Below are positions 4,825 to 58,125 of a stretch of DNA of 64,000 nucleotides, piece after piece. How positions within the stretch are numbered: position 1 is the first letter of the stretch; every line of letters begins with the position of its first letter. Made by a program: the position numbers and the translations under genes. The notes beneath the pieces are model-generated. The model saw only the letters and a program-made list of their open reading frames with translations, searched no databases and was not told where the DNA came from. Origin of the DNA: a virus (lineage: Duplodnaviria; Heunggongvirae; Uroviricota; Caudoviricetes); the IMG/VR virus record IMGVR_UViG_2821013286_000001, positions 1 through 64,000 of that record, one strand, 5' to 3'.

Positions 4825-5012
4825 AGCAGTTCGCTACAAAAGCTGTCACGAAGCTCGCAGAGGCTTACCGGGACTATGACCGCGCAAATCCTGATATCGG
4901 CATGGGTCCGAGCGCTGGATACTTCGTGGACATGGCAGCCAAGGCTCTCGATCTGCAAAAGCATGAATACGATGCCGTTGAGGCAGAAAAGACATTGAGG
5001 AACACACGATGA
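4821..5012 (+). CDS. hypothetical small protein
   Basis: ATGA overlap at both ends (4821 and 5009); 63 aa. Confidence 0.35.
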   Translation: MKQFATKAVTKLAEAYRDYDRANPDIGMGPSAGYFVDMAAKALDLQKHEYDAVEAEKTLRNTR

Positions 5013-38936: not shown

Positions 38937-39137
38937 ATGGATTCTCTCAAGCTCATTTGGGAAACACCAGCTGACAAGCCTGAAGGCTGGCATCGTCTCG
39001 TAATCTGCGAGTGGAATGGTCGCTGCTATGAGATCCTCGACATTATCGAGAGCAACGATCCGGCATTTCTCGAACGCAAACTGATTGAGCGAACAACTCC
39101 ATGGAAGGGACGAGCTGCGCTCGCCAAAGCAGCATAA
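38937..39137 (+). CDS. hypothetical protein
   Basis: 66 aa after a hairpin. Confidence 0.35.
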   Translation: MDSLKLIWETPADKPEGWHRLVICEWNGRCYEILDIIESNDPAFLERKLIERTTPWKGRAALAKAA

Positions 39138-39175
39138 TAACTTTATAACTGCGGGATCAATCAGGAGCCTGCAGA

Positions 39176-39408
39176 TGACGACAAAGAATGATGTTTACAA
39201 TCATATCGGCGAAGCCCTTCAAGATCATTTACCAGAAGATGGCTCCGCTGAGATCGGTATGGATCACAACAAGCTCTTTTTGAGAATGGGTGGTCAGGTA
39301 TTCGCCATTTCAGTCGAAGAGAAACAGCAATTTCGGAGCGTTGATAAGCCAATCGAGGCGGCTAGAAATTTTATGGCTACCCTGCCCTACTGGCCTTGGC
39401 GACGTTAA
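39176..39408 (+). CDS. hypothetical protein
   Basis: In-frame ATG in track ORF 39085..39408. Confidence 0.35.
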
Positions 39409-39507
39409 GTGCATAATCAGCGGCTATTTTCAGTGCCGTGTAGAATAATTATTGAACGCCATTTAATTCATTCCTATTGACTGAATTTCATCACGAAAGG
39501 GGCTTTT

Positions 39508-39915
39508 ATGATCCGCTATATTCTTCCACTCGCCTTGCTGGCACTCACCGGCTGTCAAACTGCCGGAAACGTCAACGACAATATGCTTGCCGGCCAGAAG
39601 CCAGCGACTGCAGCCGACCGCCGCAGTATCGCAGAGCATGCGCGTGTTCACATGAAAGACCCCTACTCCATCCGTGATGCGGAAATTTCATACACGATGC
39701 CGAACGGCAAGCGGAACGGTCAGGACGTTCGCTTCGTATGCTTCCGTGCAAATGCCAAGAATTCCTATGGAGCCTACACCGGGATTCAGTCCCACTCGGC
39801 TGGTCTTTATCCAGATGGTTCGCTTACGGATGTCAGCTCAAATGTCCATTGGTGCAATAAGCCTGGCATGAAGTGGCAGCGCTTCTCGGAGTTAGAAAAC
39901 ATTAGAAGTCTCTAA
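39508..39915 (+). CDS. lipoprotein
   Basis: Signal peptide with lipobox LALTGC; followed by an intrinsic terminator. Confidence 0.5.
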   Translation: MIRYILPLALLALTGCQTAGNVNDNMLAGQKPATAADRRSIAEHARVHMKDPYSIRDAEISYTMPNGKRNGQDVRFVCFRANAKNSYGAYTGIQSHSAGLYPDGSLTDVSSNVHWCNKPGMKWQRFSELENIRSL

Positions 39916-40641: not shown

Positions 40642-41085
40642 ATGACACCGATGTTATATGTCCTGAGTTTTATGAGCATCGTAATAGCAGCCATCGCTGT
40701 TGGCGGCTTTATGTCATGGCGAGACCGTGCACGCATGCAGTCGGAGCTGAAATTTGTTCGGACCGAGCGTCAGCGTCTTCAAGAGGAAGAAGCCACGAAA
40801 GCCGCCGAGACTGTCTCCCAAGATGAGACGAGCGTCGAGTTGTCCGACAAACTCAGCTGGATTGTGAAGTCGCCACAGAATGTCGCAAAGTATGACTACG
40901 AAGCCGACCTGATCGAGCGGCTCACGCGGCGAAAAGAAGTTCAGGGAAAGATCCGCAACATCGTAGCCAGACACGCTGCTGAGAATAAAAAACCCAGTTT
41001 CGTGTTCGTGAGAAATGCGATCTTTGAAACCGAACAGCCTCTGCGCAGCGTGCGGCACCACCTGAAGGGCACCACTGCTCGCTAA
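40642..41085 (+). CDS. membrane-anchored protein
   Basis: N-terminal TM helix then charged coiled region. Confidence 0.45.
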   Translation: MTPMLYVLSFMSIVIAAIAVGGFMSWRDRARMQSELKFVRTERQRLQEEEATKAAETVSQDETSVELSDKLSWIVKSPQNVAKYDYEADLIERLTRRKEVQGKIRNIVARHAAENKKPSFVFVRNAIFETEQPLRSVRHHLKGTTAR

Positions 41086-41303
41086 TCACTCCCTACTCTC
41101 TTCTGAGGCGCCGGACTGTGTTCTCGTAACACTCTGGCGCCTTGTCGTAAGGTGATGTTCCTGTGAGGCCGCAGCTCAACCACTTTGTCGTAGGCAGACA
41201 CAGCGACATCGAAATTAGCCAAAGCTCCGAGTACCTCGGTAATCCCCCTCCAGTCATGATGCCACTCGTCAATACGAAACCGTAGCTCCGGATGTATGTT
41301 CAT
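41082..41303 (-). CDS. hypothetical protein (convergent with upstream + gene)
   Basis: 73-aa ORF with GGAGTG SD on the minus strand. Confidence 0.35.
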   Translation of the reverse strand: MNIHPELRFRIDEWHHDWRGITEVLGALANFDVAVSAYDKVVELRPHRNITLRQGARVLREHSPAPQKRVGSD

Positions 41304-41659
41304 GTCTCGTCACTCCAATAAGAACAGAACGAGAACATACACCCAAAGCGAAAACTGAATCCACCGCTTTCTAGACGCACATTCTGACAAGTCAGCTTTA
41401 CGTATAGAGACCGAGAGTTGACCGTCCTCACCTACCGAGATTGAAAATACCAAGAGAACGCAACCCCTCGAATTTTGGTTCTCCTTTACGTCAGCTTAGC
41501 GCGAGCTTGGCACGCAGTTGACAGAAACTGCCCAAAACGACCTTTTTGGACGTCAACCTCGGAAACCTCATAGAAGCTCACTGACGAGCGTTTTTAAATT
41601 TCAGGTCACATCATAAGCGAAAACATGAGAACGCTTCTCAGCGCTCAAATCTGACAGCT

Positions 41660-41675
41660 TTCTAGATATCTAGAA
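41660..41675. repeat. perfect 16-bp palindrome TTCTAGATATCTAGAA
   Basis: Read directly from the non-coding hub; TTCTAG half-sites recur elsewhere in intergenic DNA. Confidence 0.55.
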
Positions 41676-41889
41676 CAGTAGAGAACTAGCTATCTTCAAT
41701 TACCGGAACATAGAAGTGAACAACGCTCGAAATCCATAAAGCTAGGCTTCTAGAAACCTACTCACCTATTTCCGATCCGGTAGACCAAAACAGAGAACTC
41801 ACCACGACCGGAACCGGCACCAAATTTCCATATACAGAACGCACCCACTGGAAACGCTGAATTCCCAATGGAAACGGTAGAGAAAAGAA

Positions 41890-42240
41890 CCTCGGAGAAT
41901 TCTCACCTCATAGAAAGACAGAAACCTAGAAAGATAGGCATATAGAGAGAAAGCCTCATAGAAACCTACAGAGACAGATCCATAGAAAGAGAACTACCTG
42001 CGGATATAGAATTCTAGAATTACAGAAAGAAAGGCTCATAGAGAGAAACAGCTAAGAGCATATGCGTAGGAGTGAGAACTGTAGAGAGGTGGCTACGTGA
42101 ATGAGAGAAGTGGCGAGAGAGTAGACGTATGAGTGGAGAGTAGGCTGTGAGAAATAGCGAGAGGTAGAGGGTAGGTGTAGATGAGTGGATAGCGTGAGAA
42201 GGGAGAGGTGGAGAGAAACGTAACGAAGGATGGTGGAGCG
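41890..42240 (+). repeat. purine-rich (GA-rich) low-complexity block on the + strand
   Basis: 42060-42240 is roughly 78% A+G with about 7% C; contains repeated CATAGAAA / TAGAGAG / GAGTGGAGAG words; no credible ORF. Confidence 0.6.
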
Positions 42241-42244
42241 GCGC

Positions 42245-42400
42245 CAGCCAGGCCCTCTTCCTGCCAACCGCCCCGCTCCCCTCCTTCCAGATCCGCAGCC
42301 TAATCCACTCTGGACCAGCCACCGGAACCGCCGCACCCATTCCCGCGAGCCTCTCATGTCCGCAGTTTCCTAGATTCCTGCATTCCTTTAATTCTAGGAA
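42245..42400 (+). repeat. pyrimidine-rich (C-rich) block immediately abutting the purine block
   Basis: ccagccaggccctcttcctgccaaccgccccgctcccctccttcc...; abrupt strand-composition switch at about 42240. Confidence 0.55.
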
Positions 42401-42443
42401 CCGCAACATTTGGAAGCCAAGTTCCGTACATTTATATAAATCT

Positions 42444-42510
42444 ACATTCCTAGATATATATTATATATACATCGCACGGCTTCCAAACACGTCGGGAATG
42501 TGTCCAACTC
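42444..42510 (+). repeat. 55-bp element copy A (alternating TA run + ACATCGCACGGC + AAACACG..AATGTGTC)
   Basis: atatatattatatatacatcgcacggcttccaaacacgtcgggaatgtgtccaactc; about 160 nt upstream of gene 42670. Confidence 0.55.
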
Positions 42511-42669
42511 CTTGAATCTCGCGGCTATCGATGGGTTTCGGTTCCGCATTGTTTGTCTTGCGGTCCGCATCGCCGCGCTTCTAGGAACAAGCTCACCTTT
42601 GCTAAAACGGTAGTCAGAAACAACGAAAGACCGCCACGAAGCGGTCACTCACAAAGCAAGGGTAATGAC

Positions 42670-43491
42670 ATGGCAAACATTTTCAATCTTACCGCCGCTG
42701 ACGCCCACGACCTCGACGCTCTGATTGCGGACGCGCTCATTCAGGAAGAAGCAGAGAAGGCGAAGCTCGATGCTTATGCCGACCAGGCCAAGGAGATCAT
42801 TCAGGCCGAGGCTGTTCGACAGGAGCAGCTGAACGTTCCGGTCATCGAGCGGATCTATATCGACGGCAATCTCAAAGTTACGGCTGACGCCATCGAGATA
42901 GAGCAGGTGGAAGCGTTCTGCGAGCGCATTCGAGCCGAGTTTGTGACACGTGCGGTTTACGAGAAGGAGAAGAATGAGGCGAACGACCGCATTCAGAAGA
43001 CCCTTCACGGCTGTGCAAGCATTCTTGCCTCGATCCGAGGTGCACGCGGTATGCTCGCCTGTGACGTTGATCCGAGCTTCATCAATCGCCATCACCGCGA
43101 TAATCAGCGCTTCAACGTCTACGCCATCGAGAAGGTGGGTAAATTCGTGCAGCAGATGGATTTTGGTGCGATCGGAAACGCCATCAACAATGCCGTGTTC
43201 AAGACCATGTGGAATTTCATGAACGCTGGCGACGAATTCACCATGGACGCAGCCAAGTGTGCAGCGAGTGCTGATATCCGTCTGAAGGACGAGCAGAAGC
43301 GCTGGCACAAGCACCTTGTGCGCCACACAGTCAAATCGACGGTGGCGAGCACGCAGTCATCCTCTACTCTCAACGCCATGGCAGTTCTGGGAATTGCCAA
43401 GCAGACCGGTATGAAGAACGGCGTTGAAGTTTGGCAGATGATCGACGGACCGCAGACACGTCGGATTGCGGATGTTTTGAAGCTGGTCTGA
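42670..43491 (+). CDS. hypothetical protein (first gene downstream of the non-coding hub)
   Basis: MANIFNLTAADAHDLD... (274 aa) starts at an in-frame ATG of track ORF 42553..43491. Confidence 0.5.
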   Translation: MANIFNLTAADAHDLDALIADALIQEEAEKAKLDAYADQAKEIIQAEAVRQEQLNVPVIERIYIDGNLKVTADAIEIEQVEAFCERIRAEFVTRAVYEKEKNEANDRIQKTLHGCASILASIRGARGMLACDVDPSFINRHHRDNQRFNVYAIEKVGKFVQQMDFGAIGNAINNAVFKTMWNFMNAGDEFTMDAAKCAASADIRLKDEQKRWHKHLVRHTVKSTVASTQSSSTLNAMAVLGIAKQTGMKNGVEVWQMIDGPQTRRIADVLKLV

Positions 43492-43707: not shown

Positions 43708-43750
43708 GTTTTAGGCGTATCTATCTTTCTATAAATCTATGTTCATAGAA
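43708..43750 (+). repeat. promoter-like cassette copy 1 (TTTTAGGCGTATCT..TTTCTATAAATCTA..TTCATAGAA)
   Basis: gttttaggcgtatctatctttctataaatctatgttcatagaa; 35 nt upstream of ATG 43785. Confidence 0.6.
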
Positions 43751-43784
43751 ATGCAGAACGCTAAATCGTTAGAAAGATAGAGAA

Positions 43785-44009
43785 ATGGCAGAACATACCT
43801 ACCTGCGAGCGCTTGAGACCAAGTTAGCGCGGTCTGTCGCCACTGACCTGGCCGATAAGCTCTGCGATCAGACGCATGAGGAGTTCCAGGAGCTGGTCGC
43901 CGCTAAGCGCCGCAGTCTGCCAAAGGTGGTTTGGGAAGACGTGATCGACTTCTTCGCCGATCTGACGACCAAGAGCCACATCCAAGCCGCTTATATGCTG
44001 GAGGCATGA
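43785..44009 (+). CDS. hypothetical small protein (cassette gene 1)
   Basis: Preceded 35 nt upstream by a repeated promoter-like cassette. Confidence 0.45.
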   Translation: MAEHTYLRALETKLARSVATDLADKLCDQTHEEFQELVAAKRRSLPKVVWEDVIDFFADLTTKSHIQAAYMLEA

Positions 44010-44293
44010 CCATGCTGACAAACGGAACAACTGATGGCGTGACGCTCGAAGAGGAAGAGCAGATCAGACGGCTGCTTCCGGAACGTCTCAAGCGCTTTGT
44101 GCTGGAATTCATCAATGAGCCTATTCCGTGGCGTTGGCTATGGAACGCTTACCTGACGCGCGGAGAAGATGACCTCATGAAGCTTTTGGAAGTCGCCAAC
44201 GTCAAAATGCATGCAAATGCGATGGGTGAGGACTTCTACCGGTACGTCAGCCCTTATCGAGACCTCGAAAGACCCGCAACATCGCGCTTTTAG
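44006..44293 (+). CDS. hypothetical protein
   Basis: ATGA overlap; 95 aa. Confidence 0.4.
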   Translation: MTMLTNGTTDGVTLEEEEQIRRLLPERLKRFVLEFINEPIPWRWLWNAYLTRGEDDLMKLLEVANVKMHANAMGEDFYRYVSPYRDLERPATSRF

Positions 44294-44329
44294 GCGTAAC
44301 TGCATTTCTATAAATCTAGCTTCATAGAA
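44287..44329 (+). repeat. promoter-like cassette copy 2
   Basis: cttttaggcgtaactgcatttctataaatctagcttcatagaa; 20 nt upstream of ATG 44349; about 85% identical to copy 1. Confidence 0.6.
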
Positions 44330-44348
44330 CGCTAGAAAGGTAAATACT

Positions 44349-44633
44349 ATGTCCATGAGCTATTCCGCTACCCTGAACAGCTACGATCCAGCGTCCAATT
44401 CGATGACGGTAGATGTTCGTCGCTTAGAAGAGCCGAACGAGACGTTTCTGGTCGAAGCCTATATCGACTCGCGTATCTTCGGAATTCGCGATACCACCGA
44501 CCACACAGGTGATGCGGAAGACGATTATGCAGCCGAGGTTCTCTATCATTTCCTCAAGGCGCATAAACATGCTGTAGCCGCCCACCGACCTACCGTCATA
44601 GATGGCGTATTTCTGTTTTCCATAAACGTCTGA
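44349..44633 (+). CDS. hypothetical small protein (cassette gene 2)
   Basis: Preceded by cassette copy 2; followed by an intrinsic terminator. Confidence 0.45.
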   Translation: MSMSYSATLNSYDPASNSMTVDVRRLEEPNETFLVEAYIDSRIFGIRDTTDHTGDAEDDYAAEVLYHFLKAHKHAVAAHRPTVIDGVFLFSINV

Positions 44634-44637
44634 TCTA

Positions 44638-44662
44638 AAGCGCCCATGTGGCGCTTTTTCTT
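44638..44662 (+). terminator. rho-independent terminator
   Basis: AGCGCC-catgtg-GCGCT followed by TTTTTCTTT; after cassette gene 2. Confidence 0.6.
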
Positions 44663-44788
44663 TACCAGGCTATGCGGACCAGGCCGAGGCTGTGGCGGCT
44701 GATCCCGTTCCCTGTCCCAACGCCGAGCAGCTCACCAGGTTTCACCCATCTGAACCCGCTACAAATGTTTCTAGATCCGCAACGTTCT

Positions 44789-44835
44789 GTTTTTAGGCTT
44801 ATCTAGCTTTCTATAAAACTAGATTCATAGAGAGC
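44789..44835 (+). repeat. promoter-like cassette copy 3
   Basis: gtttttaggcttatctagctttctataaaactagattcatagaga; 41 nt upstream of ATG 44876. Confidence 0.6.
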
Positions 44836-46013: not shown

Positions 46014-46378
46014 ATGTGTTACCTATTTATCTGTTTTTGTATGATTATAGATACCTAGATTTCTATATTCCTTCAAAGCGAACGTTGCGGCATTGCTAGA
46101 TGTCGAGAAGGGGAGAATTGCAGAAAACTAGGAAGGTAGAAGCCTAGGAAGCAAGAATTCCATGTCCGCAGCCTTGCAGGAATCTAGAAGGACAGGATTG
46201 CAGGCGACCAGGAGCCGAGCCACCGGATAATCCAGTAGGGGAGGCGGCACGAAATAGGATCGGCGGAAAATGGCGTTCGGCTCACAGGGGAATGGAGAGC
46301 ATTGCCCATAAGGAAAGGGGAGCGGGACGCGGCGCTGGACCGCTGATTATCGGACTGCTGATAGTGCGCTTGCAACAT

Positions 46379-46428
46379 ATGTTTCACAACAATGTTTCAC
46401 GCAAAGGTCAAAAAGCGTCAAATTTGAC
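46379..46428. repeat. direct repeat ATGTTTCAC x2 and 12-bp palindrome GTCAAATTTGAC
   Basis: atgtttcacaacaatgtttcac ... gcgtcaaatttgacc, 3' of the low-GC minus-strand gene. Confidence 0.45.
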
Positions 46429-46508
46429 CGCTGACACGCGTTTTGATTTTTGCGCAAAATGATACGCGCGCTATTGCTAACGCGCGTCTGTGACTCGATT
46501 TGAGCGAA

Positions 46509-46534
46509 CCGCGCTAGATATTTCACTAGCGCGG
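46509..46534. repeat. inverted repeat CCGCGCTAG-atatttca-CTAGCGCGG
   Basis: 9-bp arms 11 nt past the stop of gene 46545..47177(-); no U-tract. Confidence 0.4.
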
Positions 46535-46544
46535 TAGGTTACGA

Positions 46545-47177
46545 TTAGAGCTTTGCAAGTACCGCTTTCAGCATAGCGTTTTCGGTATTGATCTTATGCG
46601 TTTTGAAACGACCGCTAAACGTTGCACGCTCTTCAGCGCTCAAAAGGTTCAAAATGTTGAGACCTTCAAGAACAACGCTATTGCTCGACGATTGCGTGTC
46701 GCACGTTGCAGCGTCGCAATTCGTCTTACCACGCTTGATTGCATACATACCGCTTTCGCTCTTGTCAGTAATGTAGTCATGCGAGAACGACTTGCGACTA
46801 TCAAGTGAGGTGAAAATTTCACGCTCATTCACGATGAAAAGCTTGATAGTCTTCATTGCAGGTTCAAGAAATGCGTCAAGCGTTGCTTTACCGCTTTCAT
46901 CGATAAGAAACTTCAACATGCTTTGCAGCTTCTTGAGCGCATACATATTTTGCGTGAAAACACCGACATTGCATTGAACGCTATCAAGCAATTCTTCAAC
47001 CTGCTTTACACCGAGCAAAAGAGAAATGTTGTGAAGCATTTTCAGGTTCGGTGCGCTGATAGTACCTTTCTTCACTTCTGCGTCGATACGCGTTGCGAGC
47101 GCAAGCACATACTTGTTTTGAGCTGGTGCATTGTTCGTTGCGTTCTGCTTCTTTGCTACATTCTTAGTCATTGTCAT
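46545..47177 (-). CDS. hypothetical protein in a lower-GC segment
   Basis: 210-aa minus-strand ORF; GC visibly lower (about 44%) than surrounding genes; palindromic element at its 5' side (47186-47212). Confidence 0.5.
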   Translation of the reverse strand: MTMTKNVAKKQNATNNAPAQNKYVLALATRIDAEVKKGTISAPNLKMLHNISLLLGVKQVEELLDSVQCNVGVFTQNMYALKKLQSMLKFLIDESGKATLDAFLEPAMKTIKLFIVNEREIFTSLDSRKSFSHDYITDKSESGMYAIKRGKTNCDAATCDTQSSSNSVVLEGLNILNLLSAEERATFSGRFKTHKINTENAMLKAVLAKL

Positions 47178-47185
47178 TACCTCAT

Positions 47186-47212
47186 GTTGTGTGAACGTTT
47201 ATACATATTTGT
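47186..47212. promoter_or_regulatory. palindromic intergenic element (upstream of minus-strand gene)
   Basis: gtgtgAACGTTTATACAtatttg, 9 nt from the start of gene 46545..47177(-). Confidence 0.45.
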
Positions 47213-47467
47213 TTTTGTGCATCGTTGCGAGACTTGCTTGCTCGCTTTCGATGATTTGAATTTATCAGCTTTCACGTTTTATGCAACGCGGGATGCACCG
47301 AAGTCTTAGAGATATCAACAGGTTAGCTAGGGGATGCCTTCATTGTGCGCCACGATTTTTGAACCGTTCCTCCGGTCCGCTGCACCTTCTAAAATCCCCA
47401 CAATCCCTTATTCGCTATCCTCCGGTTCCTATACCCAACCGCCAACAGACAGGCGTTCGTTCCTCCG

Positions 47468-47497
47468 GTTTGTAAATAAACGTTGATTTATATTTCT
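47468..47497. promoter_or_regulatory. palindromic intergenic element
   Basis: tttgTAAATAAACGTTGATTTATAtttc before gene 47552. Confidence 0.5.
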
Positions 47498-47551
47498 GCG
47501 GTGCATATGTTCGGATCATTGATTTGCTAATCCTTTTCCGAAAGACCCTTT

Positions 47552-47782
47552 ATGTCTCAATCCGTTTCAAGCACGTCTGACGAACGCACCGTCAACAACA
47601 CCATGCGCCATGCCTACCGTGTTCTCTCCGATGAGGAGAAGGCGAACATGGGCAAGGTTAAGGATATGGGCCTCGAATTCCATAGTCTTGTCGATGGCCT
47701 TGGCGCCAGCCGCGAACTCTCCATCGCAAAAACCAAAATCGAAGAAGCCGTCATGTGGGCAGTCAAGCATCTGACTGCCTAA
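47552..47782 (+). CDS. hypothetical protein
   Basis: First gene of a + operon after the palindromic element at 47468. Confidence 0.45.
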   Translation: MSQSVSSTSDERTVNNTMRHAYRVLSDEEKANMGKVKDMGLEFHSLVDGLGASRELSIAKTKIEEAVMWAVKHLTA

Positions 47783-49282: not shown

Positions 49283-49546
49283 TCAGCCCTTGGAATTTTC
49301 CTTGTACCAAAGGTCCACTGCCTCATAGATCACCTGGGTCAATGTCTTATCGACCGCGACAGCTGCGCCCTTCAGCTTACGATGCCACTCACGATCCACG
49401 ATCACATTGAGCTGTGAGGTGGTTTTGGCGCGCATGTTATCCGCTGGCTTGATGTTGGTATCAAGCGACGTGGCAAAATACGAGCGCTGTGCGGTGCGCG
49501 GTGCCTTCTTTGGCGTGTAGTCTTCTTCATCGTCTGCCATCTTCAC
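49283..49546 (-). CDS. ParG-like ribbon-helix-helix partition protein
   Basis: 87 aa, basic N-terminus, C-terminal RHH-like segment LNVIVDREWHRKLKGAAVAVDKTLTQVIYEAV; 4-nt overlap with the upstream ParA gene. Confidence 0.45.
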   Translation of the reverse strand: MKMADDEEDYTPKKAPRTAQRSYFATSLDTNIKPADNMRAKTTSQLNVIVDREWHRKLKGAAVAVDKTLTQVIYEAVDLWYKENSKG

Positions 49547-50184
49547 ACTCCTGTCCGCTCATCAACCAGTTTATAAATTTCTGTCAGAAGACGCTTGGCG
49601 TCACGCTTGAGCGTGGCAACCTTGACTTCCTGCACCGCTAGTCCTGTCGAGTTCGCAAACGCGTAGGTCGGTCGGAACTTGATCTCGGTCTTGGCGATCT
49701 TGAAACCGCCGCCGCTAATCAATTCGCGCGTCTCCTTGACGGCAATCGCGCTATCGACGGATTTGCTGATGACGAACAGGATATCATCTTTTTTGGCACC
49801 TTTATCGACCAGCTCCAGCGCGAACGCGAGCTGCGGCTCCACATCGTCTGCGATCGGCGCGGTCGGAATAAGGATCAGACGAGAGGCGAGGGCGATATCG
49901 AGCGAGGTATCGTGACTGTCTGGCTTGCCATCGGCCACAACCAGATCGACGCGCTCTTTGCTAAGCATGGACGGCTTGGCATAAGGCTTTGCATCAATCG
50001 CAGGCTCGTATTGGGCCGCCTTGCGTTTCTCATTCCATTTGAAGGAGGTTAGCTGTGTGGTGTTGAAGTCGGCAATCTTCACAGACCAATCATTGCTCGC
50101 ATAGCCAACCGCAATCATGCGCGACAATGTGGATTTTCCGACGCCGCCCTTCTGGCTGAGACAGGAAATAATGACCGGTTCCAT
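49543..50184 (-). CDS. parA: ParA/ParF-type partition ATPase (small type Ib)
   Basis: Deviant Walker A SQKGGVGKST; 213 aa; followed by a small RHH gene. Confidence 0.75.
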   Translation of the reverse strand: MEPVIISCLSQKGGVGKSTLSRMIAVGYASNDWSVKIADFNTTQLTSFKWNEKRKAAQYEPAIDAKPYAKPSMLSKERVDLVVADGKPDSHDTSLDIALASRLILIPTAPIADDVEPQLAFALELVDKGAKKDDILFVISKSVDSAIAVKETRELISGGGFKIAKTEIKFRPTYAFANSTGLAVQEVKVATLKRDAKRLLTEIYKLVDERTGV

Positions 50185-50379: not shown

Positions 50380-50414
50380 CCCCTGCTCTTTCATAGAGCA
50401 GGGGTCTTTTTTTT
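50380..50414. terminator. GC hairpin + T8 tract at the 3' end of the helicase gene region
   Basis: ACCCCTGCTCT-ttcat-AGAGCAGGGGT TTTTTTTT; the T-tract is on the + strand although the neighbouring gene is on the minus strand. Confidence 0.45.
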
Positions 50415-51990
50415 AGGCTGCTTTCTTGAACTCCTGAAAGATTTCCCAAGGCAGCTGTTCGACAATACCTTCTGCAAAGCCAGGCGTGCTGCGCACGATA
50501 TTCTCACGCTGGCGCGCATGATCGCGGAGCACGTCCGGAGCGTTGGACGAGTAGTCGATGAAAAATGCAAAGTTCGGCATGCCTTTCTTGGCGCGCAATC
50601 CACGACCGATCTGTTGCCGAAGTTGTACTTCCGCCTTCATACCGCCCAGGCGCTGCACAAGACCAATAGCTGGAACATCTACACCTACGTCCAGAATAGT
50701 CGTGCCGATAACGCCATCCAGTTCACCATCTTTCAACTTACGCAGCGTCTCGCGACGTTCACCCATCTTGTCTTCGCCCTGCAAAAACGCAAACTTCAGA
50801 CCGGCAGCCTTGTATTTCTCCAGAATGACCTGTCCGTGGCGCTTGCGAGCAATCAGTGCCAATACCGGCAGGGAGTAGCTTCTGGCTAACAGGGCATCTT
50901 CCAGTGCCTGTTCATGCATATTGGTGTTGTCGATATAGCCAAGCGTGTAGGCGCGCTCATATGGCGTCGATTTATAGAGCTTCACTGCTGCTGGAACGTC
51001 TCGGAACAGGAAGTATGGCTTTGCCAGAATGCCGCGATTAATTAACTCCTCTTCGGAAATGTCGATGAGAATGCGTCCGAACGCCGCCATGAGGCGCATA
51101 TTGTCTTCGGCAGACGAGCGCATGAACGGTGTGGCGGTCAGTGCGACGCGGATCTGAGCATTTTTGCAATACTGCAGGATCTTGAAGTAGCTTTCGCCGC
51201 CTGCTTCGTGCGCTTCCTCACCAATTACGACCTCGACCAGAGACAGAAACTTCTCAATGGCCATCTTCCGGCGCTTTTTGCGGTCATAATTATCCTGCGC
51301 GAGCTTATCGATCTCTTCATTGGGCATATTCGGATTCTTGCCCTTGCTGAGATTGATTGATTGAATGATGGCTCGACGTTCTGCGCGAAAATCCGGCTCT
51401 TCCAGTGATTGAACAAGAGTTTGAACCATGCCGAGGTTCACACCCTTGACGAAACTCATTTCTCCGTCGCCGATCTGACCGGTGCTCATGCCTATATCTT
51501 CGAGCTGGCTCTTCATCTGGTAGAGTAGGATGCCGCGCGTCGTGATAAAAAGCGTGATCCGCTTGAAGCGAGCGGCAATCAGTTTGGCGATCTTTGACTT
51601 ACCGCCGCCAGTCGCCACACGAATGATGCCGTTCTGATGCTTCTCGACCTGACGAAGCGCCTTCAACTGGTAATCGTATTTTGGATCATCATTGCCGAAC
51701 TCGTCTACAATCGGAGATTCCGGACCAAGCGGTAGCATTGGCGGTTTCTTGATGTGATGCACATTGAAGCCAGCACGCGTCAGTTCCTCACGCACGACCT
51801 CTGCGAAGCCTGCCGGAAAGGTATGATTGGAGACATTGTAGAAGCTCGACTTGCCATCCCAGGAAAGAGATCCGAAGCCAGTATTCGAGTGCTCATAGGA
51901 CAGAAGGTTATTTACGAGGTTCACAACCTGCTTGGTTGGGTCGATCAGCTTCGCGATGACGGCGTTCGACGCCAGTTTGACAGTAATCAT
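50413..51990 (-). CDS. SF2 DEAH-box helicase
   Basis: Motif I GGGKSKIA, motif II VIGEEAHEAGG (DEAH-type), motif III TATPFM, motif VI QQIGRGLR. Confidence 0.7.
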   Translation of the reverse strand: MITVKLASNAVIAKLIDPTKQVVNLVNNLLSYEHSNTGFGSLSWDGKSSFYNVSNHTFPAGFAEVVREELTRAGFNVHHIKKPPMLPLGPESPIVDEFGNDDPKYDYQLKALRQVEKHQNGIIRVATGGGKSKIAKLIAARFKRITLFITTRGILLYQMKSQLEDIGMSTGQIGDGEMSFVKGVNLGMVQTLVQSLEEPDFRAERRAIIQSINLSKGKNPNMPNEEIDKLAQDNYDRKKRRKMAIEKFLSLVEVVIGEEAHEAGGESYFKILQYCKNAQIRVALTATPFMRSSAEDNMRLMAAFGRILIDISEEELINRGILAKPYFLFRDVPAAVKLYKSTPYERAYTLGYIDNTNMHEQALEDALLARSYSLPVLALIARKRHGQVILEKYKAAGLKFAFLQGEDKMGERRETLRKLKDGELDGVIGTTILDVGVDVPAIGLVQRLGGMKAEVQLRQQIGRGLRAKKGMPNFAFFIDYSSNAPDVLRDHARQRENIVRSTPGFAEGIVEQLPWEIFQEFKKAA

Positions 51991-52072: not shown

Positions 52073-52831
52073 ATGATAAACCCCGAATATCTAACGGTTT
52101 CGGCATCGACACTTCGCAAGAACCCCTGGAACACGAACATCGTGTCTGCGGACAATGAAGCGAAGATACGAGAGTCGATCACGCGAAACGGTCTTTTCAA
52201 ACCGATCATAGTCAGAGAGGTAGCGGGTATTGCCGGCTACGAGATCATCGGCGGTGAGCACCGTTGGGAACAGGCGATTGAGCTTGGACATACAGACGTT
52301 CCGATCGTCAATCTCGGCCAGATCGATGACCGTCATGCCAAAGAGATCGGCATCATCGACAATGCGCGGTACGGCGCTGACGATACGGTTGGCCTCGGCG
52401 ATATTCTGAAGGAACTTGGCAATCTCGATGAGATCCAGTCATTCCTTCCCTACGGCGACACTGATCTGAAGCTGCTTTTTACGGCAGGCGAGATCGATCT
52501 CGATGCACTCGGCGATGAGGCTACCGATGCTGAGACAGCCGAAGCTGAAGGCGTTGAGGAAGAAGTTGCCGCGAAGCCGGTCAAAACCCACACGGTTGTG
52601 CGCTTCAAAATCTCCCTTTCAGATGCAGAACGCGTAACCGCACTTGTTGCCAAGACACAGAAAACGCACGGCTACACGACGGAAGATGAGCTGACCAATG
52701 CCGGTGACGCTCTAATCCACATTCTCTCGCAGTTTTTCCCGCAAGCCGCATCCAAGAGCGAAAGCGACGACGATTTCGGCTCGGAAATGAACATTCTCGA
52801 TGAACTTGATTACGCCCTGGAGGCAAAATGA
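52073..52831 (+). CDS. ParB-like nuclease-domain protein 1
   Basis: ParB N-terminal domain pattern KPIIVREVAG...YEIIGGEHRWEQAIELG...VPIVNL; acidic C-terminus. Confidence 0.6.
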   Translation: MINPEYLTVSASTLRKNPWNTNIVSADNEAKIRESITRNGLFKPIIVREVAGIAGYEIIGGEHRWEQAIELGHTDVPIVNLGQIDDRHAKEIGIIDNARYGADDTVGLGDILKELGNLDEIQSFLPYGDTDLKLLFTAGEIDLDALGDEATDAETAEAEGVEEEVAAKPVKTHTVVRFKISLSDAERVTALVAKTQKTHGYTTEDELTNAGDALIHILSQFFPQAASKSESDDDFGSEMNILDELDYALEAK

Positions 52832-55968: not shown

Positions 55969-56060
55969 AAGCGTCCCGCAGAGTTTCAGATTTTAGGATC
56001 AGGACGCAGCGTTTCAAAAATCCGCGCGATGTAAATTAAGATAAATATATAAGAGTTAGT

Positions 56061-56118
56061 ATTATATTATATATATACATCGCACGGCATTGAAACACGG
56101 CTAAAATGTGTCGAGACG
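56061..56118 (+). repeat. 55-bp element copy B
   Basis: attatattatatatatacatcgcacggcattgaaacacggctaaaatgtgtcgagacg; about 80 nt upstream of the terminase small-subunit gene; about 80% identical to copy A. Confidence 0.55.
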
Positions 56119-56199: not shown

Positions 56200-56850
56200 A
56201 TGAGTGATTTTGAGGAAGCTGCGGATAGCGCAGATGATGCTTCCAAGCCGATTAGAAAGCTGACGGACGCGGATTTCGCAGAGGCCGTCAATCTGTATGA
56301 GTTGGGCAAGGCTGGCATCACCGAGCTTGCGGCCAGGTACGGCTGTTCGCGTCAGAATCTCTCCGATCGCTTCAAACGTGCCGGCGTCAAGAAATCCTCC
56401 CGCGTTCATGAGCTGACTGATGCCGCTGCGGCAGCAAGCCGAAAGGAAGCTGAAGCAGCGGCAGCCGCAGCGCAGCGTTTCGCCAACCGCCGCGCCGACA
56501 TGATCGAAGAAGTTCGAATGTCTGGGCTGAATGCGCTCAAGCAAGCGCGAATGCTCGCCCAGAAATCAGTTGTCGATGCGGTGAAGTCAGGAAGACCGGT
56601 TGCAGTCGCGGAAGACGACCTGAAGTCTCTACAGCGCTTTAACAAGCTATTGGTCGATAACATCGAAAGCTCTTTGCGCATTCTCAAAGCCGACGACCAC
56701 GTGGACGACACTGATCTGCCAAATCTCGTGATCGCAAATCTAACGGATGAAGAAATTCTGGCTCATCACAAATCCACCGGCGCTTTGCCGGAGGACGCAA
56801 CGCTTGATGACCTCAATCTTCAGGATTCGATCGGGCTTGAGGACGAATAA
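56200..56850 (+). CDS. terminase small subunit (putative)
   Basis: N-terminal HTH (ELAARYGCSRQNLSDRFKRAG), central Ala-rich coiled region, acidic C-terminus; directly upstream of the large terminase. Confidence 0.5.
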   Translation: MSDFEEAADSADDASKPIRKLTDADFAEAVNLYELGKAGITELAARYGCSRQNLSDRFKRAGVKKSSRVHELTDAAAAASRKEAEAAAAAAQRFANRRADMIEEVRMSGLNALKQARMLAQKSVVDAVKSGRPVAVAEDDLKSLQRFNKLLVDNIESSLRILKADDHVDDTDLPNLVIANLTDEEILAHHKSTGALPEDATLDDLNLQDSIGLEDE

Positions 56851-56853
56851 TCC

Positions 56854-58125
56854 GTGGCCGATCTTAATCAGTACGTCAAACTTCATCGCGGTCAGGCTCT
56901 CGTTATGCGGGACCGTCGGCGTTTTCGCGTTGTTGTAGCTGGCCGCCGTTGGGGAAAGACACGCCTTTCCCAGACCTGTTTGATTACGGCAGCTGGTAAT
57001 CCAAAAAGTCTCGTCTGGTACGTTGCGCCGACCTATCAGATGGCGCGAGACATTATGTGGGATGAGCTGAAAGCAGCCGTTCCGCAAGCTTGGATGGCTC
57101 GGCCGCCAAACGAAACACGCATGATCATCTATCTGCTGAACGGCGCACGCATTCAGCTGAAGGGTGCGGATAAACCGGACACGCTGCGCGGCGTCGGCCT
57201 GACATTTGTTGTGATCGATGAGGCGCAGGATATTCGTGAGACGACCTGGCAGGAAGTTCTACTGCCGACGCTCGCCTCTACCAATGGCCGTGCACTGATC
57301 ATCGGCACGCCAAAAGCCTATAACTGGCTCTATGACAAATACGTTCTCGGTCAGCGCGGCGACACCTACAAGGACGAAAAAGGAAACATCGTCGCCAATG
57401 AATGGCGCTCGTGGCAGTTTCCGACCATCACGTCGCCATTTATTCCGCGTGCAGAAATCGAAGCGCGTCGCGCCGATATGGACCCTCGCTCGTTCCGCCA
57501 GGAGTTCGAGGCATCGTTCGAAACCATGTCTGGCCGCGTTTACTACGCCTTCGACCGCAACTTGCATGTTGATGACCTGGCAATCGACAAGACATTGCCG
57601 CTCTATATCGGCATGGACTTCAATATCGATCCGATGTCGGCTGTTGTCTTGCAGGAGCAGAAGAACGGCGAGATATGGGCGATTGATGAGATCGTACTTT
57701 ACGGCTCGAATGCCGAAGAGACAGGCGACGAAATCATGTCGCGCTATTTCAAATACGCCAACAGCATGTCGCTCTATCCAGATCCGGCCGGCAACAACCG
57801 CAACCACGATCGCGGCGAGTCCTCTATCGACATTCTGCGCGAGCAGGGCTTCAAGCATATCTATTTCAAGCGCAAGCACCCTGCCGTTCAGGACCGCGTG
57901 GCCTCTGTGAATCGCCTGCTGATGTCGGCTGACGGTCAGGTTCGGCTGCGCGTGGACCGGAAGTGCAAAAAGCTGATCGATAGTCTTGAACAGACCATCT
58001 ACAAGCCAGGCACCAAGGAAGTTGACAAGTCGCTAGGCGTCGAGCACGTGACCGATGCTTTGGGCTACTTTACCGATTATCGTCATCCTGTTCGCAAGGC
58101 TCGTATTCTGGGTGTCGAACTTTGA
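56854..58125 (+). CDS. terminase large subunit
   Basis: Walker A VVAGRRWGKT, Walker B FVVIDEAQD, C-terminal RNase-H-like nuclease region (IGMDFNIDPMSAVVLQE); GTG start. Confidence 0.8.
   Translation: MADLNQYVKLHRGQALVMRDRRRFRVVVAGRRWGKTRLSQTCLITAAGNPKSLVWYVAPTYQMARDIMWDELKAAVPQAWMARPPNETRMIIYLLNGARIQLKGADKPDTLRGVGLTFVVIDEAQDIRETTWQEVLLPTLASTNGRALIIGTPKAYNWLYDKYVLGQRGDTYKDEKGNIVANEWRSWQFPTITSPFIPRAEIEARRADMDPRSFRQEFEASFETMSGRVYYAFDRNLHVDDLAIDKTLPLYIGMDFNIDPMSAVVLQEQKNGEIWAIDEIVLYGSNAEETGDEIMSRYFKYANSMSLYPDPAGNNRNHDRGESSIDILREQGFKHIYFKRKHPAVQDRVASVNRLLMSADGQVRLRVDRKCKKLIDSLEQTIYKPGTKEVDKSLGVEHVTDALGYFTDYRHPVRKARILGVEL

Follow-up and report, generated by a model that had tools for sequence, protein, structure and literature searches.

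A conserved non-coding module at the putative left boundary of a long direct terminal repeat in a family of phage-plasmids

Introduction

What role does a phage assign to more than a kilobase of DNA that contains no credible gene and switches abruptly from a purine-rich to a C-rich plus strand? The question is raised by positions 41304-42669, hereafter the hub, of a 64-kb stretch of viral DNA (the window; positions 1 to 64,000 of IMG/VR record IMGVR_UViG_2821013286_000001). An initial reading of the window, referred to here as the original prediction, proposed a replication origin (oriV) with iterons and an unwinding element, a structured non-coding RNA, or a packaging or partition site as candidate functions. 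Here we describe a hub architecture that is conserved across a phage family, and we favor, with moderate confidence, the reading in which the hub is a conserved non-coding junction and control module at the left boundary of a long direct terminal repeat (DTR). Packaging is the best supported of the options originally proposed, by way of the terminal-repeat mapping in two related phages, B1VFA and V1VFA-S, and the hub is more probably a cutting or packaging site than a replication origin.

How the ends of phage genomes with multi-kb exact repeats are recognized, cut and duplicated is an unresolved question, T5 included. The hub family offers a compact and strongly patterned cis element in which a sharp flip in composition appears to coincide with the end of the repeat. 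The family is also widespread, occurring in virion form and as plasmid prophages of 115-120 kb, with representatives in Rhizobium, Sinorhizobium, Shinella, Pararhizobium and Methylobacterium.

Results

The hub is gene-free and flips from purine-rich to C-rich

In line with the original prediction of no credible open reading frame (ORF), no conserved ORF is present at 41304-42669. The ORFs inside the hub give low-complexity translations, and the alignment with the closest relative (metagenome contig L005, 92% protein identity) contains indels of 19, 7, 15, 29, 12 and 1 columns, non-triplet lengths among them, such that no reading frame is kept. Two short frames at the flip were considered and rejected: a 47-aa ORF at 42230-42373, whose substitutions lack wobble bias and whose frame is broken in L005 by a 1-nt indel, and a TTG-start ORF at the B1VFA flip, whose substitutions are likewise not wobble-biased.

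Inspection of base composition reveals a purine tract (41880-42239, plus strand) that is first A-rich and then G-rich. Over 41900-42240 the purine content is 71.3%, slightly below the 78% originally claimed, yet the block itself is extreme for the 64 kb: the purine-richest 341-nt interval of the window starts at 41912 (0.727, versus a mean of 0.513 and a standard deviation of 0.035) and lies ~6 standard deviations above the mean. At 42060-42240, purines reach 76.2%, with 6.6% C and a GC skew of +0.74. The composition then changes abruptly at GGCGCC (42240-42245), and 42241-42345 is 51% C with a GC skew of -0.48, which confirms the flip to a C-rich block predicted at 42.24 kb. The C-rich block proper (42246-42345, plus strand) includes a CCUCC-type segment.

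Alignment with L005 indicates conserved edges around a hypervariable core. Identity is 94.5% at 41304-41566 (91% in the adjacent gene) and 92% at 42346-42669, in contrast to 50% with 82 gap columns at 41956-42215. This pattern suggests that the edges carry sequence-specific signals, with the tract under compositional constraint alone. Pure purine runs in the tract reach 13 nt at most, and GGG runs occur twice. The triplex structure that had been suggested is therefore unlikely, with no uninterrupted homopurine mirror repeat of ~15 nt or more, as in H-DNA, found in the tract, and a G-quadruplex is unlikely given only two GGG runs; the R-loop suggested alongside it is plausible in view of the GC skew of +0.74.

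A five-part architecture precedes a winged-helix gene across the family

The hub directly precedes the gene for a 273-aa protein (42670-43491, plus strand) with a long N-terminal helix and a C-terminal winged helix. DNA similarity searches gave no match in a phage collection (near and distant modes) or a plasmid collection (distant mode), and relatives of the hub locus were reached only via this protein. Its gene, with 29 homologues, always adjoins the hub, and a homologue is encoded on six 115-119-kb plasmids from Rhizobium, Sinorhizobium, Shinella, Pararhizobium and Methylobacterium. A gap of 1.1-1.8 kb lacking a conserved ORF precedes the homologue in every genome fetched (the RHph_X66 and RHEph10 records annotate short hypothetical ORFs within it).

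The same five-part architecture is found upstream of the homologue at 17 loci, which represent at least six lineages with protein identities of 30-55%. These loci comprise Rhizobium phages B1VFA, V1VFA-S, X66, RHEph10 and N1_10, pLM21S1, a Methylobacterium plasmid and metagenome contigs. The first part is a lineage-specific cluster of short words at the left edge: TTGACA/TTTACG in the window, CCTTTACA in B1VFA, TGTTGACA in RHEph10 and N1_10, and GTCCCCT with a 12-nt period in Methylobacterium. A conserved box (CTCATAGAAGCTCAC...) follows, then a tract that proceeds from A/C-rich through A/G-rich to G-rich, then the abrupt switch to a C-rich block, and finally an AT-rich box, a leader and the gene. 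A scan for skew changes places the flip at a CCGCGCC, GGCGCC or CCGCGG-type motif in the 17 loci, with CCGCGCC exactly at the flip in most. Left of the flip, homodinucleotides fall below the expectation from composition in nine lineages (z of -3.6 to -5.7, with -4.9 for the purine tract of the window), accompanied by an excess of lag-2 identity. The Methylobacterium array is far more regular than that of the window, with ~8 GTCCCCT copies in a strict 12-nt period at 4905-5010 of locus L030 (M. oryzae plasmid NZ_CP090351.1), and would be a good substrate for identifying its binding protein.

The window encodes an SbcC-like nuclease, ribonucleotide reductase, rIIA/rIIB, RtcB, a UvsW-like helicase, ParA- and ParB-like proteins, a helix-turn-helix (HTH) protein followed by TerL, and a portal. 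This portal is 54-56% identical to those of Rhizobium phages RHEph10, B1VFA, V1VFA-S, RHph_X66 and N1_10 and is more distantly related to those of Nickievirus and SSU5-like elements. The window is part of a large siphovirus-type phage-plasmid of the RHEph10/pLM21S1/B1VFA group. Published relatives are siphoviruses of 115-122 kb that carry parA, parB and repC (PMC12509600), and pLM21S1, which belongs to the RHEph10/B1VFA group, is a 117.5-kb plasmid-like prophage (PMC4447125). The relatives additionally encode a RecA-like protein and a primase.

The flip is the probable left end of a long terminal repeat

B1VFA has fixed termini with a 3,605-bp DTR, as determined by PhageTerm, and V1VFA-S has a 3,939-bp DTR, as determined from coverage; the announcement gives these lengths without coordinates (PMC12509600). 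Both genomes were rebuilt and aligned, and 3,605-bp segments of B1VFA that map to 3,939±20 bp of V1VFA-S were sought genome-wide. Only two intervals of B1VFA start positions qualify, 39113-39808 and 62587-65875. Within the first, starts at 39631-39808 (178 bp) give 3,940 bp, and this interval opens 17 nt before the GCGCCGCGCC at the flip. Starts in the second interval fall within genes for capsid and tail and yield 3,922-3,932 bp (7-17 bp off). The right boundary implied by the first interval, 43236-43413 in B1VFA, is intergenic, follows a minus-strand gene of ~200 aa and contains GAAGTCTTAGA-N-GGGGATGCC. From the flip motif to the GTCTTAG motif the distance is 3,601 bp in B1VFA and 3,936 bp in V1VFA-S, versus repeats of 3,605 and 3,939 bp; two conserved non-coding boundaries are thus separated by the length of the repeat. 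From the published DTR lengths and the genome mapping, as opposed to a direct end map, we infer that the left boundary of the B1VFA repeat lies at the flip, within 39631-39808.

The window has both boundary motifs, at a spacing of 5,060 bp, and the window phage appears to have the same boundary, with a repeat of ~5.1 kb from 42240 to ~47300-47340. The putative right boundary zone, GAAGTCTTAGA-N19-GGGGATGCC at 47300-47338, is kept near letter-for-letter in all lineages, where proteins are 30-55% identical, and a DNA-pattern search with this motif returned 11 IMG/VR contigs. The most pyrimidine-rich 341-nt interval of the 64 kb starts at 47131; each of the two inferred boundaries thus falls together with a compositional extreme of the window. 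In the same intergenic region (47177-47551), CGCTTTCGATGATTTGAATTTATC upstream of the boundary motif is likewise kept almost letter for letter across lineages; three TTCCTCCGGT-like words and a C-rich stretch follow this region.

Long repeats are also known from further afield. Nickievirus Nican01, a relative of the window phage at portal level, has long DTRs as well (PMC11256456); its record starts near the terminase gene and gives no end position. TerL of the window is 24-26% identical to the TerL of T5-like phages with long DTRs. Four independent metagenome contigs (L005, L007, L008 and L009) end within the hub, two of them at most ~120 nt from the flip. Possible causes are a step in coverage at the edge of the repeat, bias in sequencing and hypervariability. 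These contig ends were set aside as evidence of physical ends, since assembly of a DTR genome yields a circular graph, and the hypervariability of the tract is enough to break contigs.

The right edge of the hub resembles the region upstream of the terminase operon. An AT-rich promoter/operator cassette (42431-42454), a TA run (42453-42470) and a leader beginning TATATATACATCGCACGGC occupy 42431-42530 on the plus strand and are kept in L005 and in L006, a 107-kb relative, in agreement with the original description of a TA run followed by a conserved element. A second AT-rich box with a copy of this leader is located at 56040-56110, upstream of the genes for the HTH (TerS-like) protein (56200-56850) and TerL (56854-58125). 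The two leaders have a 19-nt exact core in common (56070-56088 in the second copy) within ~70 nt of similarity. This arrangement suggests that the winged-helix gene may be co-regulated with the packaging genes, the hub gene and the HTH/TerL operon having a promoter class in common.

A plus-strand transcript probably crosses the flip

All hub words are oriented on the plus strand. The conserved box CTCATAGAAGCTCACTGACG (41567-41586, plus strand) occurs once in the window, is kept in N1_10, RHEph10, L016, L017 and L018, and probably represents the half of a plus-strand promoter that lies nearest the start. Upstream of the box, L006 has the TTTCTATAAATCTA half of the gene-proximal cassette, such that the box there is the downstream half of a full cassette, which suggests a rightward promoter at ~41570. 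Rhizobium-type lineages carry, within the 300 nt right of the flip, plus-strand hairpins with compensatory and G-U changes and, at ~300 nt, a conserved hairpin followed by a T-run. A plus-strand transcript able to form an R-loop therefore probably crosses the flip in these lineages. A search for terminators in the window lineage gave none that was visible, and sigma-70 promoter scans returned nothing convincing, with hits no more numerous than in shuffled sequence.

The hub as a proposed junction module

In the reading we favor, the unique right arm would meet the repeat at the hub, whether in a concatemer or in the plasmid form. Signals of the unique sequence would lie left of the flip, namely the lineage-specific words, the promoter-like box at 41567-41586 and the A-rich to G-rich tract with its oriented operator half-sites. 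The repeat would begin right of the flip with the C-rich block, the operator palindromes, the AT-box promoter and the winged-helix gene as its first gene. The terminase or a partner nuclease might recognize the hub and, as concatemers are processed, cut or nick it at the flip. Transcription that starts at the box and enters the G-rich tract might stall or form an R-loop, thereby marking or opening the site in a manner comparable to the pausing of T7 RNA polymerase at the T7 concatemer junction. Such a module would account jointly for where the hub lies, for the conservation, at the expected distance, of two non-coding motifs that are far apart, for the compositional extremes and for the tie to the terminase operon.

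Several points weigh against a junction module. The termini of the window phage are placed by homology alone, and recognition of the hub by the terminase is likewise something we infer. The V1VFA-S repeat length derives from coverage as opposed to mapped ends, and an error of at least ~10 bp in it would permit a boundary anywhere in B1VFA 39113-39808, which is still inside the hub, or, going by the numbers alone, in the second interval (62587-65875). TerL of the window is equally similar to that of smaller siphoviruses, which include cos and headful packagers, such that this similarity does not discriminate between end types. At the flip itself, the window lineage has GGCGCC/GCGCGCC in place of CCGCGCC, and a hairpin between the G-rich and C-rich blocks, as RNA or as DNA, folds no better than shuffled sequence (z = -0.48). 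Finally, the left physical end would break any transcription unit extending across the flip.

Alternative readings of the hub

We consider it unlikely that the hub is a lytic replication origin, of either the R-loop or the iteron type. In an R-loop origin, as in ColE1 and T4 oriF/oriG, the plus-strand promoter would direct transcription into the G-rich tract, the RNA-DNA hybrid would prime the leading strand and the AT box would melt. The GC skew of +0.74 on the non-template strand does extend over 180 nt downstream of the promoter-like box, with the promoter read from box and cassette likeness and the sigma-70 scan unconvincing, and an AT-rich box follows the tract. An R-loop-type lytic origin keeps some standing because a G-rich non-template strand downstream of a promoter is what such origins use. 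A T4-style toolkit is also at hand (a UvsW-like helicase and an SbcCD-like nuclease, with the RecA-like protein and primase in relatives), and the detrended cumulative GC skew reaches its minimum 1.6-2.5 kb right of the hub in B1VFA and V1VFA-S. However, this minimum is explained by a change in gene orientation, and in the window it is located at 51.8 kb; the plain cumulative GC skew of the same two genomes, a check of the kind originally proposed, is monotonic and uninformative for an origin. The AT box is a promoter/operator cassette common to other genes, the terminase operon included, and the plasmid initiator RepC is encoded ~52 kb away in B1VFA (PMC12509600, PMC4447125).

In an iteron origin, the left-hand word array would bind an initiator, and the word arrays of relatives are spaced 12 nt or ~22 nt. 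In the window this cluster is degenerate, consisting of five TTGACA/TTTACG-like hexamers (41397, 41418, 41485, 41518 and 41552). Tandem Repeats Finder (TRF) detects no array of 17-22-bp iterons, and relatives carry arrays of 7-9-nt words. No TTATCCACA (DnaA box) was found within one mismatch in nine lineages, and the AT-rich box, the candidate unwinding element, matches a promoter/operator cassette. The adjacent 273-aa protein belongs to no Rep family: it has no sequence match in Pfam, PHROG or PDB, and its C-terminal winged helix is generic. A protein-pattern scan of IMG/VR with this protein returned nothing. With five degenerate hexamers, no DnaA boxes and no Rep neighbor, the originally proposed oriV finds no support.

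A long non-coding RNA or regulatory leader that runs rightward from ~41570 seems rather unlikely. Such an RNA could control the winged-helix and repeat genes or sequester an RNA-binding factor by means of its unstructured purine tract. The plus-strand orientation of all words, the match of the box to the start-proximal half of the gene-proximal cassettes, the Rhizobium-type hairpins with compensatory and G-U changes, and the hairpin with T-run ~300 nt right of the flip would each fit an RNA, as would the leader at 42440-42672, which folds better than shuffled sequence (z = -2.07). On the other hand, tRNA, tmRNA and Rfam scans gave no hits in the window and, in six relatives, tRNAs only, outside the hub. 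The purine tract is hypervariable, the covariation comes from ~4 independent lineages, and no terminator is visible in the window lineage. An RNA function alone also leaves the coincidence of the flip with the DTR boundary unexplained. Of the non-coding RNA originally suggested, what stands is a plausible plus-strand transcript, without an Rfam match.

It is doubtful, to a greater degree, that the hub is a transcription-driven device for duplicating the terminal repeat. Plus-strand RNA started at the box promoter would hybridize stably across the G-rich tract, as an R-loop that ends exactly at the GGCGCC/CCGCGCC flip, and the 3' end of the hybrid, or a nick, would prime strand-displacement synthesis into the repeat. 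A single-copy repeat at the concatemer junction would in this way become two copies for packaging. If true, such a device would unite an R-loop that primes replication, a genome end and packaging within a single cis element. It would also account for a tract that is conserved in composition without being conserved in sequence.

Control of DNA entry akin to the T5 injection stop is very doubtful. Entry would begin with the repeat and be followed by expression of its small genes, and the hub, placed at the inner end of the repeat, would then hold up further transfer pending release by phage proteins. Counted from the right end, the hub does occupy the position of T5 Repeat Region 3, the repeat carries small genes that each have their own cassette, and an Acb2/Tad1 anti-defence gene is located just past the repeat. 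Against this, the paired DnaA boxes in inverted repeats that are proposed for T5 are absent from nine lineages, and two-step transfer is not known outside T5-like phages. No homologue of T5 A1/A2 was seen in passing, with no search aimed at A1/A2 made. Most improbable of all is a partition (centromere) site for the ParA of the plasmid-prophage form, since, despite the resemblance of the short direct word arrays to type Ib/II centromeres and the presence of ParA and ParB-like genes in the window, parA is encoded on the opposite strand at a distance of 7 kb and is followed by a small gene of its own, where centromeres normally adjoin the par operon, and the purine tract, the flip and the leader common with the terminase operon would be left unexplained.

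Further features of the hub and the window

The left edge of the hub (41304-41566) combines the upstream region of a divergent minus-strand gene (41082-41303) with the cluster of TTGACA/TTTACG-like words. In L006, umuD-like (Peptidase_S24) and umuC-like (IMS) genes occupy the minus strand immediately left of the hub (880-2609), in a place where the window has just a 73-aa gene. Both palindromes named in the original prediction are exact: the perfect 16-bp TTCTAGATATCTAGAA at 41660-41675, which is operator-like and identical in L005, and the 12-bp AATTCTAGAATT at 42010-42021 within the purine tract. The tract also holds an array of TAGAR words (41908-42046). TAGA[AG] occurs 17 times on the plus strand versus 1.7 expected, a tenfold excess, and eight consecutive TAGAR copies (41911-42039) stand in one phase modulo 8. 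TRF finds no classical tandem repeat; the array is made up of phased core words as opposed to repeat units. The 8-nt register was rejected as a family feature, as it is not kept outside the window lineage.

The flip is flanked by inverted repeats, with GAAGGA/GGAGCGG (42225-42241) to its left and CCGCTCC/TCCTTC (42273-42287) to its right. In six Rhizobium-type sequences an ACCTCC element is invariant, and it pairs with GGAGGT left of the flip. An operator-like inverted repeat, TTCCTAGA-N18-TCTAGGAA, is located at 42367-42400 and kept in L005; its words recur at 42447 and 42580. The 5' leader of the winged-helix gene (42531-42669, plus strand) includes the hairpin GACCGCcacgaaGCGGTC (42629-42646) and a ribosome-binding site.

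CATAGAAA is present in three copies in the hub and in one at 43744. It forms the right half-site of three near-palindromic plus-strand cassettes, TTTCTATAAATCTAGnTTCATAGA, at 43726, 44305 and 44808 (43726-44831), which precede small genes and end in TTCATAGA, as had been noted at the outset. A fourth, weaker copy is found at 42431. The cassette motif has five matches versus 0.01 expected, all inside the inferred repeat, in which all four cassettes lie. The near-palindromic form gives the cassette the appearance of an operator that overlaps a promoter.

Within the inferred repeat, a second non-coding block of ~500 nt (46030-46545) resembles the right half of the hub in mirror image. Its features are a G-rich stretch at 46080-46340, which reads as C-rich on the minus strand, an inverted copy of CTAGATTCCTGCA at 46175-46187 that matches 42370-42382, a minus-strand cassette-like promoter at ~46030-46070, and repeated ATGTTTCAC and GTCAAATTTGAC words at 46380-46430. 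Directly after the inferred end of the repeat, 47552-47782 encodes a 76-aa protein with an Acb2/Tad1 hairpin domain (Pfam E = 2.4e-18), whose gene position is kept in L005 and L016-L018; the domain marks it as a predicted anti-CBASS/anti-Thoeris nucleotide sponge. Further right, a small ParA of 213 aa is encoded on the minus strand with an 87-aa ORF downstream (49283-50184), and a separate ParB-like protein is encoded on the plus strand (52073-52831), with the helicase gene (50413-51990) between them. This layout fits a plasmid-prophage lifestyle.

Discussion

If the junction reading is true, the flip motif, the purine tract, the word array and the motif at 47300-47338 would become targets for studying a link between end formation and transcription. 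The same elements would provide a sequence signature for locating termini in related genomes that were deposited with arbitrary starts.

Comparison with known systems places the hub at varying distances from each of them. Iteron origins of the Rep_3/RepA kind resemble the hub family in their direct and inverted word arrays, which are seen in relatives, in an AT-rich stretch and in a DNA-binding-protein gene alongside. The family differs in that the neighbor of the hub is not a recognizable Rep and no neighboring initiator of a known Rep family is present, DnaA boxes are absent, the array is 1 kb from the gene, and the plasmid replicon is RepC-type and located elsewhere. R-loop origins (ColE1 RNA II, T4 oriF/oriG and mitochondrial CSB) have in common with the hub a promoter, putative in the hub, followed by a G-rich non-template strand, an arrangement that stabilizes RNA-DNA hybrids, and the window encodes a UvsW-like helicase. 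In contrast to these origins, the hub tract is 340 nt long and hypervariable, and its flip coincides with an inferred genome end, not with a known replication start.

Packaging sites offer further parallels, and the closest precedents for the junction reading are the T7 concatemer junction and T5 Repeat Region 3. The cos and pac sites of lambda (cosB), SPP1 (pacL/pacR) and P1 place repeated words beside a partly palindromic cut site, as the hub does beside a putative one, and the window has an HTH protein gene directly upstream of terL. Such sites span 100-300 bp, have no transcribed purine tract and produce cohesive or headful ends, not long exact repeats. In the concatemer junction of T7 and T3, the terminal repeat is flanked by short oriented repeat arrays, the phiOR promoter and an RNA polymerase pause site, a picture said to go back to Dunn & Studier in 1983, Chung & Hinkle in 1990 and Zhang & Studier in 2004. 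The hub similarly has oriented arrays of short words in skewed DNA beside the inferred repeat and a putative promoter that reads towards the junction, and in both cases transcription is proposed to mark the processing site. T7 differs in its 160-bp repeat, versus 3.4-5.9 kb here, in having its own single-subunit RNA polymerase, and in words and motifs that are unrelated.

Like the hub, Repeat Region 3 of T5, with its injection stop signal (iss), exceeds 1 kb, is non-coding and belongs to a large siphovirus with a DTR of several kb. It differs in its DnaA boxes, which are absent from the hub, and has no described purine-to-pyrimidine flip or purine tract. In map orientation, the T5 region lies mostly inside the repeat and the hub mostly outside it. 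Two-step injection is a T5 trait. The T5 repeat region measures 1.2 kb, is embedded in 1,662 bp of non-coding DNA and spans the inner DTR boundary (bioRxiv 10.1101/866236), and the order of its repeats and palindromes is kept across T5-like phages (bioRxiv 10.1101/866236). Given the inferred boundary, the hub is likewise a large untranslated region, rich in repeats and palindromes, that is located at the inner boundary of a DTR and keeps the order of its elements across a phage family.

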